From the NCBI GenBank assembly GCA_951406725.2, contig OX597815.1:28086001-28150000 (forward strand): a stretch of DNA of 64,000 nucleotides, written 5' to 3'. The stretch comes from Octopus vulgaris. Lineage: Eukaryota. The notes under the pieces were generated by a model. It had not been told where the DNA came from. It was given only the letters and a program-made list of their open reading frames with translations, and did no database searches. The position numbers and the translations under genes are program-made. This document shows positions 13,485 through 58,900 of this stretch, piece after piece (position 1 is the first letter of the stretch; every line of letters starts with the position of its first letter).

Positions 13485-13660
13485 TTACAAAGAGATAGGA
13501 ACGAGGTTTGCACAGCATGCAAACTTCGTTACAAATAGATAAGGATGAGGTTTGCATAGCATGCAAACTTCGTTACAAAGAGATAAGGATGAGGTTTGCA
13601 TAGCATGCAAACTTCATTACAAAGAGATAAGGATGAGGTTTGCATAGTATGCAAACTTCG
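13485..13660. repeat. Minisatellite, 4 x 44 bp, each unit carrying a hairpin
   Basis: Unit ttacaaagagataaggatgaggtttgcatagcatgcaaacttcg. Internal stem gaggtttgcat / atgcaaacttc. Confidence 0.92.
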
Positions 13661-14534
13661 TCCCTAAATCTGTGTAATATATCTTTGGGTATAAATTAGA
13701 GATACTAAATTACTGAATGTTTGTTCTTATTGTTAAAGTATCCAAGTGTAAGCTGGTCGACAAACTACTTCCATGTTCTTGAGTACAGAATATTTGAAGC
13801 CTATTTTCTCTTTCTAGTTTTGTAATCTATCTTATCTTCTAATTGTTTCAGTCACTGGACTGCATTGAATCTGAAACACTATCTTGAAGGGTTTAGTCTA
13901 ATAAATCAATCCCAGTCTTATTATATTGGTCTCCTTTGTTAAACTGTTAATTTACTGGGATGTAACCAAACCAACACAAGTTGTTAAGCAGTGGCAGGGG
14001 TAAAACACAGACACAAGCACAGACACACATATTACAGCTCTTCCACAAGAACTTGTTCTGCCTAGCTCCCTTTTCTCATACTCTAACCTCTCATCCCTGA
14101 GCCTAATCTGATTTCCCCCTCCTCCCTCAGAGTTCATAGTCTTGCAAGTTGCATGACAACCTCAGTAGAGGTGGCATGACAAAAGCACCTGGAACATGAT
14201 GTAAAGTGGTCGGAGTAAGGAAGAGTAGAAGCCATGCCAAAACAGATTTTGAAATACAATGCGGTCCTAGAACCCATTGGGTCCTGTCAAACTGTTCAAC
14301 CCATGCCATCTTGGAACATGGCATTAAATAATGACGATGATGATGATGATGATGATACATATGATAGGATTCCACACAGTTTCCATTTACCAAATTCACT
14401 TACAAGGCATTGGTTGACCAGGGAAGACACTTGCTCAAACTTTTTGTATATTTCCCTGTTTCAGTAAATATGAATTGTTTGAAAGAATTATTATTCCAGA
14501 AGCCGAACTATGATGAAGATGATGATGATGATAT

Positions 14535-27454: not shown

Positions 27455-30400
27455 TTTACATATATGTTTTTCGTAGCACGTGACAGAACACATTTTTCTT
27501 TTATCTCAATAACTTTCTACTAATTATGAACAGTTTCCAGCTACAAATAACAGCTTAAGGTATGTTGATGCTTGAAGGCTTCTCCAGATAATATCTTTTA
27601 TAGGAAACATCAAAGAAAGACAGAAAAGAGCGCCAACAGGTACCATAACTATTAAAATTACCAGTGTTTTAACATAATAATTATTATGAGATGGAAATAG
27701 ACAAGTACTTTAAATGTTTGTTGAACACCTAAGATAAAACCCAACATACTTCATTAATTTGACGAGTCAATAAAGTAGGTATCAATTAAGGAAGACAATT
27801 TCTTTTTTAGTTTGTTTAATTTTTTTCCAGATAATGCTGTTGTGTTTACGGAGATGTACTTTAATAGTGAGTGACTTGATCTGAGATCGTGTGCTGGAAG
27901 AAAAACAATTGCAGTGTGGAAGGTGTTTATAAACCTATTAAGAAACACACAAAAACTGTTAGATTCACTTCAACATTTAAATTTAATTTGTCAAAATATT
28001 TTCATCGCTTTGAGACCACGACCTGTACACTGACAAAACTCTGTGCTGCATGTTCTAGTAAAAAAGGAATCCAGTCAACAGTTGAGTGAGGCAGTCATTG
28101 GATATGGCTGAAAAGGAGTGATGGAACATATGTGTGTGGTGTGTGTGAGTGTGTGTGTGTCTTTGAATCTGTGTTTGTCCTCTGACACCGCTTAACAACC
28201 GGCATTGGTGTGTTTCTGTGCCCATAATTTAGCAGTTCGGCAAATGAAACTGATAGAATAAGTACCAGACTTTAATGGAAAAAAAACCCCAAAAAGTATT
28301 GGAGTTAATTCGTTCAGCTAAAATCCTTCAAGGTGGTGCCCCAGCATGGCCACAGTCTGATGATTGAAACAAGTAAATGAAAGATAAAAGATTAATTATG
28401 AATATCTTATAGGAAAAAAAACAAGAGCTACAGCAGGATGCCAGATGTATTTCAAATTAATTGTTATCCATTTCTTTAGCAAAGAACTGATACTAATGAC
28501 AACAGAAAGAAATGAAAACTTTATGATCTGTTACAACAGAAAATTAGAAGAGATGACATCTAACCTGATATTATGAAGGATCAAGTTTTGTGTTTTATTG
28601 CTAGGTCAACATTCTAGACATTGGAGATATGGAGAGAAAGGAGAGTATTAATATTCGAGTGAGTTATGGAAATTTTCCATCATTAGCCTTGTTTTTGTTG
28701 TGTTAGCCGTTCTTTGTATGTGCATATGTTCCAGAATGGATTGAATTACATTCATATAGTCTTATATAATTTTTCTAAACCAATGTTTGTGAATACTTTT
28801 TGTGTAGTTTTAATATGGTAATATTGGAAATGGCAACTTTAGGTACTATGTAATTGATAAAATAAGAAACACTAAGCTGTTGGAGTAAATGATCCTATAG
28901 ATGAGACAAAGAATGGCAAGAGAAAAAGTTAAGAAAACAAAAAAGAGAAAGAATAAGAAAAGATTATAGAAACGAAAAAAAGAAGAAAAAGGAAAGAAAG
29001 AAGCAAAATAATAAAATAAAGAAGATGAAAAATAAGAACTAATAAAGATAGCAAATGAAAAAGAGGAAACTAATTCCATTGTCCCATCTGTGAACAGGAG
29101 GCAGCAAGAAGATATTCAATAGCTACAAGATTCGTTTAGTTATTCAAACAAATTCTTTGCCAGAAGAAGATGAAGAAATGTCTTGAACTATTTCAGTCTC
29201 ATTGTATTACTGTGTCAACCAAACCAAGAGCTGCATCTATGGTGCTGTACATTTCTCATCCAAACTTCTATCTCACTACATTATTCCATCAAACATAATT
29301 TCATACATAAGATAGAATTTCTCTGCAATTCCTGTTTCTAATAGATTCCAAGCCTATCAGTTTCAAATAGAACGAAACTTTGTTAAATAAGTATAATGTA
29401 ACAAGAAAAAAAAAAAAAAACGCAGAACAGCAGCAACCAACACTACCAGCAGCAGCACTAGCACCTCTATTTACAATAATCACCATGAATCAATAAGCAA
29501 GCCTCTACATAGTTGTTTAACCTGCTAGAAACACCAGCTCTGTCTCCCATTCTCATCACACTGTACTGTCTTTGAGCCTAGGTTTGCTTAATCAGTGTTG
29601 ACACAATTTACAATAACAATCACTACACCAATCACCACCACAACAACCATCACCATGGAATCAAAAAGTATCACAGTTCCCTATTTCCCCTTCATCTCTT
29701 GTCCACATTATGCATAGTGCATTTACATAGTCCTCGCATTTCCAAATGATTGTCATCATCATTGATAAGATTACCAACCTCCTCTAAATTGTTTCTCTTT
29801 AAATCTTCTTCTGCAATGTTTCCTCAACAAACATCATCTTTCCTTCTCATTTTCTGTATCTTTCCAATACATCATTTTATTTCATTTTGTTCAATTGCAA
29901 CAGTTTCAATTTTACATTTTATCTTTATATCTTTTGCCACTTCACTCCTCTTACAAAATATATTCAGAACAAAGCTTTCAATTACCCATTTTGTGTGTGT
30001 GTATTACACCCCTGTCTCTCTCTTGTCTTTCTATCATTTGTCCTCTCTCCTATGCACTGTATAATGCTGCCATGGAATGAGAAATAACTTTAGATTGTCC
30101 ATACTTAATCCAACCCCTCTCATAATCTCTGTGCCTCTCTCTCTCTCATTCCCATCACAAAGTTACAAAGTATCTATTTAAACTCCTGTATTGCTGGCCA
30201 TTACTCCCTCTCCTCAAAGGTTTTCGCAACTGACATATATTACACTCTTTTACCAGCAGACAGATAGTTGCCATTCATGTCTCTTTCTCACAGCCATCAC
30301 CCTCTGATATATATCATTTCTCTCTCATTATTATTCCTCTTCCATTACTCCACCTAGAAGTGTTTACTATCTTTTCCTCTTTTCTCATACTGTGCCGGTG

Positions 30401-32060
30401 GCACGTAAAAAGCACCATCCGAACGTGGCTGATGCCAGCACCGCCTAGACTGGCTTCCGTGCCGGTGGCATGTAAAAAGCACCAATCCGATTGTGACCGT
30501 TGTCAGCCTCACCTGGCACCTGTGCCGGTGGCACGTAAAAAGCACCCACTACACCCACGGAGTGGTTGGGCATCCAGCTGTAGAAACACTGCTAGATCAG
30601 ACTGGAGCCTGGTGCAGCCTTCTGACTTCCCAGATCCCCGGTCAAACTGTCCAACCCATGCTAGCATGGAGAACGGACGTTAAACGATGATGATGATGAT
30701 CACTCCGATCGCTTTTTTCCCCATATTTTCTCTCCTTTCTCCCACCCATTTTAGTTCACCTTGTGCAATCACCCTCTCTTCTACTCACCCTATCAGTTAC
30801 ATTGTCCTGAATGAACAGAAACAACATTAAATGATGAAGATTCTTTTAACTGACTGGGTACACTATTGCTGGTACTATGATAAAATACATCCTATATGCT
30901 CCGTAAAAGTTAATAATAGGAAAAGCACCCAACTATAGAAACCAAGCAGAAATGAAAACAGAACAAGCAAGATGTTGTTCCCTGACCCATCTAGAAGTTT
31001 GGTAACTCTTTTGGCGTTTGTTGACATTTCTGATCAACAAATCATTCACTAGCTATGCACTTACAAATTTCTCTGGAATATAAAAAATTCCTTACTTGAA
31101 GGTTTGTGACAGGAAAGGCGAGTGGCCATAAATATCCTGCCTTGTTTTCCTCCTGTCTAAGCTATGCTAGCATAAGAAACAAATGTTAAAACTAAATGGT
31201 TTAACTCTGTTAAAGTATTTTATACATCTTGTTTTGGTATTCCTCTAAAACGTCATCTGTGAATCAGTAAGCTCATGGATAAATATATGCATAAATGAAT
31301 CTGAGTTGACATCTAAGTCTCAATGAAGAGAAATTGTAGACAAATAAATTACTATCGCCATTCATTATTTTGCTCTGCAGATAAAAAATTTTGACAGAGA
31401 TTTTCTTTAACAAAAAAAATGTCCATTTCGAATCATTAAAGTAAAGATTTATAAGAACCTATAACTCATATTGATTTAAAAAAAAAATTTCAATTATTTT
31501 CCAAGACAAAAACCAATAGTTAATGAAGGTTAAAAACTTGTACTGAGCCATTTATATCAATTGAGAATAACAAATATTTGTTTCCTTATTTTTTTAAATA
31601 GGAAAATACAATGATATTCATTATCACTAATGTGATGTGTTGTGATTATCAAAAAATAATGGTGTAGAAGCAATTAATAGATGGGCTTCAGGTTGTGATT
31701 TACAGTGATGGTCTATAAACCTCTGCTTAACAGTAAGCAAATATTTAACAGTTTAGATTTGTTAAAGATTGGTGAAAGTTTCCCACTGACAATTGTTCTT
31801 TATTTGTTGATTCATTATCAAAATAGCTAGGAAAGGAAAGAGAGAACTCAATACAAGTGGAGTATGAAACTTCACTTCAATTCTACTCCTCCAACTTAGT
31901 GAATATTTATTCAGAAGAATTTCCAAGCCTGAGGTATGTTGTTCCATTGCATTAGTTTTCTGCTATCAATATTTCCAAGTGTAGTTCTATATTTAAGAGA
32001 TGAGGAATTATGTACATTATTTACATTCGACGGATATCTGTCCTCATCTTGTTTGCTGTT

Positions 32061-39751: not shown

Positions 39752-39976
39752 GAGAATAAAAAAAGGAGGACAAAGATAGGTGTGTCAACAACAAACAGAT
39801 CTATTAGTTTCACACTTGGGAGGTGAGAAAGTGTTTTACATTTTGAGTGTACACTCTTCGATAGAAAGGAACACAGAAATAAACAGGGAGAGAAAATAGA
39901 AAAAGGTGTAGTGGCTAGTGATCTAGCATGACCGGACAGCAGGGTCACACAAGAGAGCTAGGAAGAAGGGGAGAAG
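39750..39976 (-). mobile_element. PLE pLTR remnant next to (TA)n with a hammerhead relic
   Basis: Minus strand reads TTT-CTATCGA-A-GAGT-GTAC-ACTC-AAAA-TGTA-AAA at about 39834-39867. The layout matches the 8391 relic. Confidence 0.5.
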
Positions 39977-45930: not shown

Positions 45931-46234
45931 AACTTATAAACAAAGGCTAAAGAAAATATTTCTATGCCAATACGCTGATAACAGACTTTTAAATCATCAA
46001 TTTCCACATATTATATACTCACTACAGAAATACATAGTACTGAAATCGGGAAGCTAGTCAACAGAATTTTTTTTAAATAACAAACTTTTTTAAAAAATTC
46101 TATTGACTAGCTTCCCAATTTCAGTACTACGTATTTCTGTAGTGAGTATATAATATGTGGAAATTGATGATTTAAAAGTCTGTTATCAGCGTATTGGCAT
46201 AGAAATAATTTTCTTTTGCCCTTGGTTATAAGTT
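45931..46234. repeat. Fold-back inverted repeat (about 140-bp arms, about 20-nt loop)
   Basis: 45931-46072 versus 46092-46234 with few mismatches. Ends at (TA)n. Confidence 0.93.
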
Positions 46235-47419: not shown

Positions 47420-47825
47420 GGAAATTGTAGCTGTAATACCAGTGCTGGTGGCACATAAGAGAACCATCCGAATGTGGCCGTTGCCAGTGCCGCCCTGACT
47501 GGCTTCTGTGCCGGTGGCACGTAAAAAGCACCATCCGATCGTGGCCGTTGCCAGTCTCGCTTGGCCTCCGTGTCGGTGGCATGTAAAAAGCACCATCCGA
47601 CCGTGGCCGTTTGCCAGCCTCGTCTGGCACCTGTGCCGGTGACATGTAAAAAGCACCCACTACACTCATGGAGTGGTTGGCATTAGGAAGGGCATCCAGC
47701 CGTAGAAACATTGCCAGATCAGACTGGGCCTGGTGCAGCCTTCTGGCTTCCCAGACACCAGTTGCACCGTTCAACCCATGCCAGCATGGAAAGCGGACGC
47801 TAAACGATGATGATGATGATGATGA

Positions 47826-54609: not shown

Positions 54610-54651
<42 letters not shown>

Positions 54652-54654
<3 letters not shown>

Positions 54655-55005
54655 CTACTTCATTTTGGTTAATATAGAAAGGATTGAGGTAACTCCTCCT
54701 TTGACTATATCTTCAGGAGGAGTTACCTCAGTCCTTTTTATATAAACCAAAATGAAGTAGATTGACAAATTTATTTTTGAACCAGTTGAAGACATACAAG
54801 ATGTTGAAATATCATTCACTAGATAACAATGGCGCTCTTCTTTTAATTTTGACTCTATATCTTCTGGAGGAGTTACCTCAATCCTTTCTATATTAACCAA
54901 AATGAAGTAGATTGACAAATTATTTTTTGAACCAGTAGAAGACACACAAGATGTCGAAATATCGTTCACTAGATAACAATGGCACTCCTTTTAATTTTGA
55001 CTCTA
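54652..55005 (+). repeat. Two tandem ~150-bp units plus a ~48-bp inverted 5' copy, embedded in (ATT)n; PLE pLTR architecture with hammerhead-like folds
   Basis: Units at about 54701-54850 and 54851-55005. 54652-54699 is the reverse complement of 54866-54913. Hammerhead-like motifs at 54778-54818 and 54928-54968. Confidence 0.8.
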
Positions 55006-55021
55006 TTATTATTATTATTAC

Positions 55022-55066
<45 letters not shown>

Positions 55067-55074
55067 TATTATTA

Positions 55075-55105
<31 letters not shown>

Positions 55106-55122
55106 CATTATTATCATTATTA

Positions 55123-55171
<49 letters not shown>

Positions 55172-55172
55172 T
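55005..55172. repeat. (ATT/ATC)n microsatellite
   Basis: Directly visible. It is the source of the poly-I/N/L ORFs. Confidence 0.98.
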
Positions 55173-55463
55173 ATATGCTTGGCTTTTGCTTTGTATTTGT
55201 ACAAGTTGACTCCAAGACTCATCCACAGACCTAAAGAGACAACAAGTTAGAAGTTCAAGTTGGTGTTATGGCTAGAGTGCAATATTTTTGGCTTTGCACA
55301 AAATATTGTTCTAGAGAATGTGTGTGAAAACACAAGAAAATTAAAAGTTTGTTTTAAATGTAATATTATAAGAGGATAGTTTGATGCAGTAGAAGGTGTT
55401 TGCTATTATGTACATTTAAAAGTATTTTGACACTGTTTACAGATTAAAATGTTTTTGGGATTA

Positions 55464-55985: not shown

Positions 55986-58900
55986 TATTATTATAATTAT
56001 TATTATCATCATCATCATCATCATCATTATTATTGTAACTATTATGCACTATATCATTTAACAGGGATGTTTTATTGTTATTATTGAGGGTGGTGGAGTG
56101 ATAGAGTTGTAAGATTTTAAGAAATATTTCTTGCGGTATTTGATCTGGCCCTTGACATTCTGTGTTCCAATCATGTTGAAGTCTATGTTGTATTTCATTC
56201 TTTCAGGATTGATAAAATAAAATACCTGTCTAGTACTGGCACAAGGCAGGTTGATGTAATCAACAAACCATGCTGGCCTTGTGCCTAAATTAGAAATGAT
56301 TAGCAATATTATCATTTAGGGAAGTGAATTGGTAGAATTTTTAGAATGTTGGACAAAATGTTTTGGAGGTTTGTTCATATTCTTTGCTCAAATTCCATTA
56401 AGATCAATTCGTGAGGTCGATAAAATGTAGTACCAGTTGAGTGCAATTATCTCTCTCCCTTTAGCTGTGAGGTCTTGAATATTCTGTGGTCCCTAGGGTG
56501 AGAGGGTCAACAAGGTGTCAATGTCTGTAACTACATGGACACCTAAAAACACTAATGAAAGGCATAAGGCATGTTGATCCCCAGTCCTGTTTGATTGTAA
56601 GTGATGGTCACAGAATTGTTCTTCTTGTTATTGTTTGCTGAGTATGCACTTGTTTATAGAGTTCCACTTAGAAGGTGATTTCTTCCAGGATTACATGATG
56701 GGAAATAAAATTTCATTTTTATCAACTAAAAAATTTAGTTTATCATTCTTTCCCAGAACTATACCTATTTCTTTAATACCCAAAGGGGCTAAACACAGAG
56801 AGGACAAACAAGGACAGACAAATGGATTAAGTCAATTATATCGACCCCAGTGCGTAACTGGTACTTATTTAATCAACCCCGAAAGGATGAAAGGCAAAGT
56901 TGACCTCGGTGGAATTTGAACTCAGAACATAATGGCAGACGAAATACCTATTTCTTTACTACTCACAAGGGGCTAAACACAGAGAGTACAAACAAGGACA
57001 GACAAACGGATTAAGTCAATTATATTGACCCCAGTGCGTAACAGGTACTTATTTAATCAACCCTGAAAGGATGAAAGGCAAAGTTGACCTCGGTGGAATT
57101 TGAACTCAGAAGGTAGTGGCAGACAAAATACTGCTAAGCATTTCGCCCGGTGTGCTAATGTTTCTGCCAGCTTGCCGCCTTTCATTCCCAGAACTATACC
57201 TTCCTAAAATTCCCTTCTTGTCTGTAATTTCTTATAAACACAAACCTACAATGATTTAAGCTGAACATTAGATGCACCAACTATTAGTTAGCTCAATGTG
57301 TTTCAGGTTCTTTCTAAGAGGACCTAAAAAGTATAATGTTTATTGCTCCACTTTCTCTTAATATGTTAGTGTGTTAAGTCGATGCTGTATATCATTTTCT
57401 ATAGCTTCAAGTTTTAGAAAAAGCTATTTTCTATAGCCATAACTAGTGAATGAAAGTGGATTTATGGAAACTGTATAAAAGCCCAGGGTTGATGGAAACT
57501 GTATTTATATTTCAAATGGTCTACTTTGTCACAGGCTGCAGCCATGCTGATTCTGCCAGAACATTACATTAAGGGTACATACACCTATGATATACTCAGC
57601 CACTTCAAGAACATAAATGCAGTTGGCTGAACAACTGAATCCTCATTGTCAAATAACAGGATTCCATCACCATGACTACCAAAGAAAGCCTAAAATACTC
57701 TGTGAATTGTTCCTCTTTTGAAACTAGTTATGCTAGTGAGAGAAATTCAATCTAGATGAGGCTAAAAATAATATGATTATTGCCTCTATACTTAGATTTG
57801 ATTAATAAACTAAATATATTTCATTATGGTTGCTGCAAATTGAAAAAAAGCAAGGAGAACTTTTATCACTTATATCATAATAATTCTCCATCCTGTGTTT
57901 TCATTCTTTTATTCGTTCACGCTACATAAATTCTAAATGGTTGTTTTCAACTGAGGAAACCATCTTGCAAGAATTAAATTCATCAGAGATGATGTAGATT
58001 GAACCATAAATAATAAGCAAGTCAAATGTACTCTACCTAATTCTGGGTTTTATTTTAGATCATCCGTTCCTTCTAGAGTATATTTAGCTGCTTCACAGCA
58101 GGCTAATTTTTTAAAATTGCCTTCAGTTACCCAGATATTTACAGTATATATTTCTAATAGTTTGAACTCTTAACCTAAAGAATTCACACAGAATCCTGCC
58201 TTTTACTTTTCCTGAGATAAATCAATGCATTAGCAATTTTAAGCTGGGGATTAGAGATAATATCAAAAGATTGCTCTTCAAACAAATAACATATAATATT
58301 TACTGACTTTATATATATTAAATTATATACACTGATTTTAGTAGGTGAAGAAGAGGAAACAATTTTTTTTCTCCCAGCAATTACAAATTATGAAAGAAAA
58401 AAATGTTCTTATTTTAATGTGAAATTTTTATAAAATATCTATATATAAACAAAGCAAATTGAAGCTAGTAGATACAAACAGCATACAAAAAAAATACAAA
58501 AAACAAAATGGGCGCCAGATGGTCTTGTATTTACTTTTTATGATATGTTTTTTGTCTTTTTGCTCACTTGGATTTTTTATGAATGTAAATATATTCATTG
58601 TAGAATCTGAGGATAAACTCAGATTAATTTAACTAAATTCAATTTTTTAAAGTTTCTTTTCATTAATATAGAGTAGAAACCAAAGTGTCACCATGTTTCT
58701 TTCCATTCTTTCATTCAAAGCCATTTAAAAAAATCTTTAACCTCTTTACTATTGTCAGGCAAATACAAAACACATGTTTACAACAAAATAGTTGCACTGT
58801 TTGTTGTTTCAGTAGAATCAAACTTGGAATTTGGTTCTCTAACCACTTTGGATAAATTACAACAAACTGAGGCTGCCATGACAACTGAATGCAAGCATGG

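Follow-up and report, generated by a model that had tools for sequence, protein, structure and literature searches.

Can a hammerhead motif that departs from the canonical core at two positions still cut RNA, or is it kept for another reason? The question is raised by a 64,000-nucleotide stretch of the Octopus vulgaris genome (GCA_951406725.2, contig OX597815.1, positions 28,086,001 to 28,150,000, forward strand; here the window, in whose own numbering coordinates are given), where two tandem 150-bp units each carry a minimal type I hammerhead-like motif with the core CAGUNGA in place of CUGANGA (U4A plus A6U). The original prediction offered a choice between a natural catalytic-core variant and a family-wide dead relic. 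Between these two, the data favour an intermediate state in which the fold would have been kept. With a probability of about 0.5, the locus represents a single insertion of a repeat that derives from a Neptune-type Penelope-like element (PLE) without being autonomous, with a fold that is likely selected and a CAGUUGA core that is likely very slow or inactive. This reading draws on the core letters of the dispersed family, on the constancy of its stems among lineages, and on a coding PLE with a canonical core and the same junction sites.

Core letters and fold of the 150-bp family

When the genome was searched with unit 2, 103 matches turned up on many contigs, from the best 40 of 860 candidates scored. 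Left free at positions 4, 6 and 7 and in loop II, the motif pattern had 175 exact genome matches against 0 for a reversed control, so that the motif is not a product of chance. With U4 there are 77 matches, 73 of them carrying U6; without U4 there are 106, and among the 100 of these listed A4 occurs in 96 and U6 in 97, with 16 lying in one array. Of the 177 pattern matches listed, three have A6, and two of these are PLE copies. Once array-overlapping and PLE loci had been left out and six duplicates removed, 156 loci remained, and the 147 that were assigned carry CAGUUGA (76), CUGUUGA (38) or CUGUGGA (33). These core types co-segregate with flank letters and diverge from their own majorities by 4.3%, 5.3% and 5.2%, respectively. 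The bias of choosing loci by their motif was countered by also taking loci through a downstream anchor and a flank-only query; together with whole-unit loci these gave U6 in 99 of 110 motifs, A6 in 8 (some of them PLE motifs or poor matches) and A4 in 65.

A6U is family-wide, fixed in all five lineages described below, while U4A is a subfamily trait that marks the youngest subfamily. The expectation of a family-wide CAGUNGA is thereby borne out at position 6 and reduced to a subfamily at position 4, where CAGUNGA, as the consensus of 76 of 147 loci, is not a private change that predated a local duplication. The natural cores of the repeat are UUGUGGA, CUGUGGA, CUGUUGA and CAGUUGA. In contigs of organisms D, E, B and F, U is the only letter that reaches at least 3% of depth at position 6, and A4 takes 0.64, 0.74, 0.89 and 0.79 of the depth, shares which are not copy numbers and for which the reference sequence itself has A4. 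Some 20 units form an array that has variants of its own (L014:1038-3153 and L017, at G000:C1, about 33.626-33.629 Mb); it adjoins a deleted piece resembling a long interspersed nuclear element (LINE), and likely expanded locally after insertion.

The two units of the window, on the plus strand at 54705-54854 and 54855-55004, were delimited as a tandem repeat and by similarity (period 150, 91% match), with the forward segment beginning near 54700. Each holds a motif with a CAGUNGA core, as predicted: motif 1 lies at 54778-54818 with the core CAGUUGA at 54783-54789 and a predicted cut after 54813, and motif 2 at 54928-54968 with CAGUAGA at 54933-54939 and a predicted cut after 54963. In unit 2, C3 is 54933, position 4 is 54934, position 6 is 54936, N7 is 54937 and C17 is 54963. 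Both units have an extra A before stem II, the GACA/UGU(C/U) stem II, GAAA, AUAU, C17 and stem I. Two changes are private to unit 1: G1.1A, by which stem I loses its core-proximal pair, and C11.1U. The two units do differ at position 7, but A7 is so scarce in the family (9 of 213 motif matches; 1 of 100 in one listing) that in unit 2 it is most likely a private mutation, and the difference is no sign of tolerance.

Across the family, stems I and II occur with G10.1-C11.1 (G-C in 90 and G-U in 10 of 110 motifs) and with the extra base after A9, and GAAA-UA-UC, with its palindromic 15.2/16.2 pair and NUH site, stands in both window units, A15.1-U16.1 being present in 103 of 110 motifs. The core, with the U6 and A4 counts given above, departs from the YUGANRA (U4, A6) of PLE minimal hammerheads, and the repeat is for that reason not classed among them. 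An Rfam scan of the window gave no hammerhead family among 31 matches at E<=1, a canonical CUGANGA..GAAA scan gave 11 loose matches with none at the tandem units, and a relaxed hammerhead descriptor matched the window at unit 2 only. When three consecutive units from the genomic array were folded, stems I and II paired with probabilities of 0.82-0.94; the isolated motifs did not fold more stably than shuffled sequences (z -1.57 and 0.61).

Constraint on the motif was assessed on 136 aligned near-complete units, 125 of which were sorted into five lineages of 7, 10, 17, 25 and 66 units, the first three hand-picked from tree order; they diverge from their majorities by 7.5, 6.8, 6.1, 5.4 and 5.1%. 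Of 41 lineage-level changes, hand-counted with indels and repeated columns merged, seven fall inside the motif: three in loop II and one each at N7, H17 (U/C), position 3 (U/C) and position 4 (U4A). The 22 stem positions took none, a count equally low in 3 of 152 circular shifts, and with G5, G8, A9, 9.1 and G12-A14 added there were again none (1 of 152 shifts, with a mask picked post hoc). An a-priori mask of 31 nt of stem and core took two changes against a mean of 8.4 (2 of 152 shifts). The changes are clustered, and a 20-nt stretch outside the motif is likewise invariant. Stem covariation, put forward in the original prediction as a check on the family, did not appear: across the five lineages there are no compensatory pair changes at lineage level and the stems are invariant, and in two other organisms a C>U stem wobble reaches 9% of depth. 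Ages suggest that lineage O is the oldest, whereas the PLE-outgroup tree roots near Q on a long branch, and owing to this conflict U3>C and U17>C can be read as repairs or, in reverse, as losses. The hammerhead fold is probably under selection.

A second family bears on position 6. The decayed motif at 39834-39867 on the minus strand, within an element piece at about 39755-39935, does have the U at position 6 that had linked it to the tandem units; it belongs to an unrelated PLE and shows no significant similarity to the 150-bp unit. Its family (1,923 candidates, family core CUGUNGA) has different stems and carries U6 in 30 of 30 copies, and a long C-rich 3' region and a coding remnant of GIY-YIG type, read by its motifs, precede the motif. 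The corresponding pattern, free at positions 4, 6 and 7, has 8,495 exact genome matches; the first 100 listed have U4 in 98, U6 in 95 and N7 as A/C/G/U in 30/29/6/35, the C and U being partly CpG decay. The target of this family is apparently (TA)n (example loci L347, L353 and L369). Since the family is unrelated to the repeat and has U6 nonetheless, A6U is to be read as having arisen at least twice independently.

Partner element and mode of insertion

A canonical-core match at L063 led to a family with the stems of the repeat and a CUGAAGA core. Its motif is preceded by coding remnants comprising a reverse transcriptase (RT) end, a CX5CxxC linker and GIY-YIG, the last recognized by Pfam at E 4.8e-5 and placed by the Atlas in clusters with HTH_animal and GIY-YIG; Pfam gave no match for the decayed protein P0001. 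Repeat and partner have in common stem I, the base of stem II, the AUAU stem III, the 3' tail, which aligns to the same two junction ends, and the (TAA)n target. In 55 partner motifs U4 occurs in 51 and A6 in 53, CUGAAGA and UUGACAA being natural cores, and the 3-8 pair is C-G in 13, U-A in 32, U-G in 6 and C-A in none, a covariation that counts as one event because only two lineages are concerned. These C3-G8 and U3-A8 lineages lie 10.8% and 5.4% from their majorities (L091-L120, L261-L290), and G10.1-U11.1 is frequent in the partner (33 of 55 motifs).

The repeat likely derives, as a non-autonomous form, from a Neptune-type Penelope element, where the clade call for the partner follows from the CX5CxxC linker and GIY-YIG motifs rather than an RT tree and leaves Nematis possible. 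The proposed architecture of a PLE pseudo-long terminal repeat (pLTR) stands as to its PLE type, its sense strand and its minimal type I anatomy, and falls as to a pLTR of a coding element at the locus itself. A single PLE pLTR copy elsewhere, L152:530-760, has the core CAGAGGA (A4 with A6); A4 was rejected as the consensus of its family, whose 19 motifs carry U (11), C (6) or A (2) at position 4, and CAGAGGA there is probably private.

Insertions of the repeat follow a common pattern. Of 251 segments, 56 have their RNA-sense 3' end at unit positions 41-42 and 135 at 131-150; these two clusters, by which the plus strand is recognized as the RNA strand, mostly adjoin TAA or ATT runs. The 5' ends are scattered, most segments are shorter than 200 nt (26 of 247 are longer, with a maximum of 562 nt), and 75 of 156 loci contain both orientations, which is consistent with priming off both nicked strands of the target, as we infer. 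Fragments of a LINE with the (TAA)n target in common, by its motifs a candidate Dong/R4-like element, often lie in the same microsatellites (L014:1-640, L028, L063:1950-2300). The unit as a LINE 5' untranslated region or 3' tail was ruled out, LINE-like pieces adjoining only some copies and having the same target.

The window copy conforms to this pattern and to the predicted inverted 5' copy with an (ATT)n target. Repeat detection places an (ATT)n microsatellite at 54610-54652 and a (TAT)n/(ATT)n microsatellite at 55004-55174 (both plus strand). An inverted 48-nt piece (unit positions 12-59) occupies 54652-54699 on the minus strand, its RNA-sense 3' end adjoining the microsatellite, and is 100% identical over 48 nt to 54866-54913 of unit 2, although the units differ by 9%; conversion between the inverted arms is possibly the source of this identity. 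The preferred 3' junction at unit positions 41-42 (54890-54896, plus strand), homologous to a junction of the partner, is unused here, and the other, at the unit end (54998-55006, plus strand), is used and has microhomology to (ATT)n.

Elsewhere in the window, a long inverted repeat at 45953-46211 (125-nt arms, 95%, 9-nt spacer) has sub-threshold Rfam hairpin matches and resembles a miniature inverted-repeat transposable element. Other tandem units, at 13485-13661, 30390-30546, 47442-47657 and 56761-57131 (44 bp x4; 62-63 bp x2-3; 184 bp x2), include later ones in this list that sit inside dispersed repeats resembling short interspersed nuclear elements.

Cleavage or a retained fold

Among 82 segments taken by the downstream anchor, three end at the predicted cut or one base from it and nine within -3 to +8 of it, with no clear pile-up of 5' ends at this first site above neighbouring windows (p 0.45). 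Read-through is expected from circles as well. Segments from one locus carry like polymorphic letters, for example 23 of 23 against 0.48 between loci. RNA-seq of organism B, which has the largest expansion of the family (three runs, about 6% of each), gave 132, 125 and 83 reads on the repeat, from both strands, of which 77-87% continue into unlike sequence and none form piles of starts or ends. Joins of unit end to unit start, seen in 14, 8 and 7 reads, are also given by tandem DNA. The libraries are ordinary cDNA, from which 150-nt circles can be lost, and the reads look like read-through transcription, compatible with small circles being present or absent.

These observations accord with a route in which plus-strand repeat RNA would be bound by the RT/GIY-YIG protein of the partner and primed at nicked (TAA)n through microhomology at either junction site. 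Priming would often proceed off both strands, producing the inversion, and copying would run straight across the motif from an uncut multimer or circle. A6U would likely be a tolerated slow variant; U4A likely took away most of the residual activity without stopping the spread, and the fold may afterwards have been kept chiefly as a signal to the partner protein, in recognition or in folding. Weak catalysis is to be expected from published work: all single and double mutants in a pairwise scan of the CUGA region had low activity, the C3-G8 swap excepted (PMC9901934), natural A6C cleaves at <0.1 per min (PMC3088659), PLE minimal hammerheads are slow even with a canonical core and their dimers cleave weakly (PMC4209133), and Naiad PLEs spread without canonical hammerheads (PMC8557442).

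Several results weigh against this account. Of 24 segments that run past one motif, 12 end near the second cut site, and four independent ends coincide with it (L128, L147, L160 and L182; the near ones include L002, L004, L013, L027, L052, L060 and L202), an excess that is post hoc (p 0.007, or 0.015 minus one duplicate) at loci partly the same as in the first-site test. Read-through across the motif also occurs in the canonical-core partner, and for that reason it is not proof of a dead core in the repeat. The letters G5, G8, A9 and G12-A14 took no lineage-level change, and U4A is the sole lineage-level motif change outside known natural variation, since the published alignment of PLE motifs has both U3 with G8 and U17. 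The second family retains U4 and U6 beside a variable N7, as would fit real catalysis by U6 cores; fixed U6 beside free N7 is the strongest hint that such cores may function. No direct autonomous parent was found among the PLE copies compared, the repeat standing on a long branch, and L316 was rejected as the coding parent, its PLE piece being incomplete, with about 300 bp of microsatellite in between, and a separate insertion.

That U6 cores cleave usefully is, in our judgement, slightly better than an even bet, whereas useful cleavage by CAGUUGA is doubtful. An active, slow CAGUUGA core is a tentative alternative overall, to which the unchanged stems and general acid/base positions G8 and G12 in five lineages lend weight, as do the independent A6U in a PLE with thousands of pattern matches, segments reaching 562 nt, and the end excess at the second cut site, weak as it is. 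Letter concordance within loci would suit a single monomer template, but a homogeneous multimer accounts for it equally well, and the first cut site has no footprint. The letters lost, U4 and A6, both supply contacts of the U-turn and are not a Watson-Crick pair open to swapping. U4C permits viroid infectivity (PMC3088659); CUGA double mutants, however, show no rescue in what is available of PMC9901934, and a published alignment has U4-G5-A6 in 56 of 56 motifs, though the search there required the core (PMC4209133). The wider proposal seems possible but unlikely: CUGUNGA would be a recurrent working PLE core in thousands of copies that CUGANGA descriptors overlook, and CAGUUGA a further working variant, lacking the canonical U-turn letters, whose 150-nt circles went on amplifying in several related species.

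If instead cleavage and fold had both been irrelevant since the fixation of A6U, conservation would reflect chance and slow change. Core positions 3, 4 and 17 did each change once at lineage level, the PLE-outgroup tree can be read with all of these as losses, and the lack of compensatory changes and the invariant stretch outside the motif point the same way; the circular-shift results of 1 to 3 in 152, the concentration of motif changes in loop II, N7 and H17, and the same stems in lineages found by the flank-only query make neutrality improbable. Somewhat less probable still is a parasite substrate: a repeat with a dead core of its own, whose AUAUC-stem I strand would be cleaved in trans, within a mixed double hammerhead, by the canonical ribozyme that the partner carries. 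It would account for the identity of stems I and III, palindrome included, with those of the partner between diverged flanks; mixed helices have the computed energies of self helices, and the U3-A8 partner lineage (5.4%) is near in age to the young repeat lineages (5.1-5.4%). Yet these are very short helices (-3.0 and +1.6 kcal/mol), slow compensatory change would also give identical stems, and A6U in the second, coding PLE family is left unexplained. The failure of Rfam, the folding of isolated motifs and the LINE-like fragments beside some copies might suggest an ordinary satellite or LINE fragment with a chance resemblance, a view made very remote, and largely refuted, by direct homology to the canonical-core motif of a GIY-YIG PLE and by an anatomy that equals the published minimal-hammerhead consensus down to the extra base and palindrome.

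Significance and likeness to known systems

Descriptor searches that require CUGANGA would miss the 150-bp repeat. Partner and repeat offer a natural series of cores on one scaffold in one genome, beside an independent CUGUNGA family. If U6 or CAGUUGA cores work, the hammerhead consensus is wider and families missed by descriptors are exposed; if catalysis was lost, a passenger of a PLE can go on spreading with its fold retained. Either outcome bears on whether PLE minimal hammerheads must cleave, their role in vivo having been called a mystery (PMC7761336). By titles and abstract openings we found no report of A6U or U4A hammerhead cores, a provisional result, as earlier surveys may list U6 cores.

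The PLE minimal type I hammerheads (Cervera & De la Pena 2014, PMC4209133) resemble the repeat in the U-rich 5' flank, short stem I, extra base 9/10.1, G10.1-C11.1, GAAA, palindromic 15.2/16.2 without a real stem III, NUH site and position near the 3' end of a PLE-type element. They differ in the core: every one of the 56 motifs in Figure S3 has U4 and A6, where the repeat has A4 and U6, and U3-A8 is the sole core covariation described for them in the parts available. The natural variants A6C, U4C and U3-A8 (PMC3088659) depart from the core once each, at these same positions, and keep a low level of activity that can still be detected, whereas A6U is here the fixed letter of two families with many copies, in one of which U4A joins it. 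Further literature compared comprises PMC6765202, PMC6155905 and PMC13282606.

Neptune-clade PLEs (PMC8557442) resemble the repeat in inserting into microsatellites, in their inverted 5' pieces and in the extension of about 40 bp that separates two junction sites, and resemble the partner in the CX2-5CxxC linker before a C-terminal GIY-YIG, the CX5CxxC type being described for Neptune/Nematis; the repeat itself is non-coding. Animal non-LTR retrozymes (PMC7229834; bioRxiv 10.64898/2026.07.22.740005), which derive from PLE pLTRs according to the latter source, are likewise non-coding tandem or dispersed units of low GC with PLE pLTR kin. The repeat differs in its unit of 150 bp, at the short end of their range, in a hammerhead-like motif of the minimal instead of the canonical kind, and in its non-consensus core. 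Its non-coding head-to-tail units with one type I hammerhead-like motif each, its dispersed copies, and the (TAA)n microsatellite target, 5' inversions and junction sites in common with a coding PLE all suggest that it works like a PLE-dependent retrozyme.
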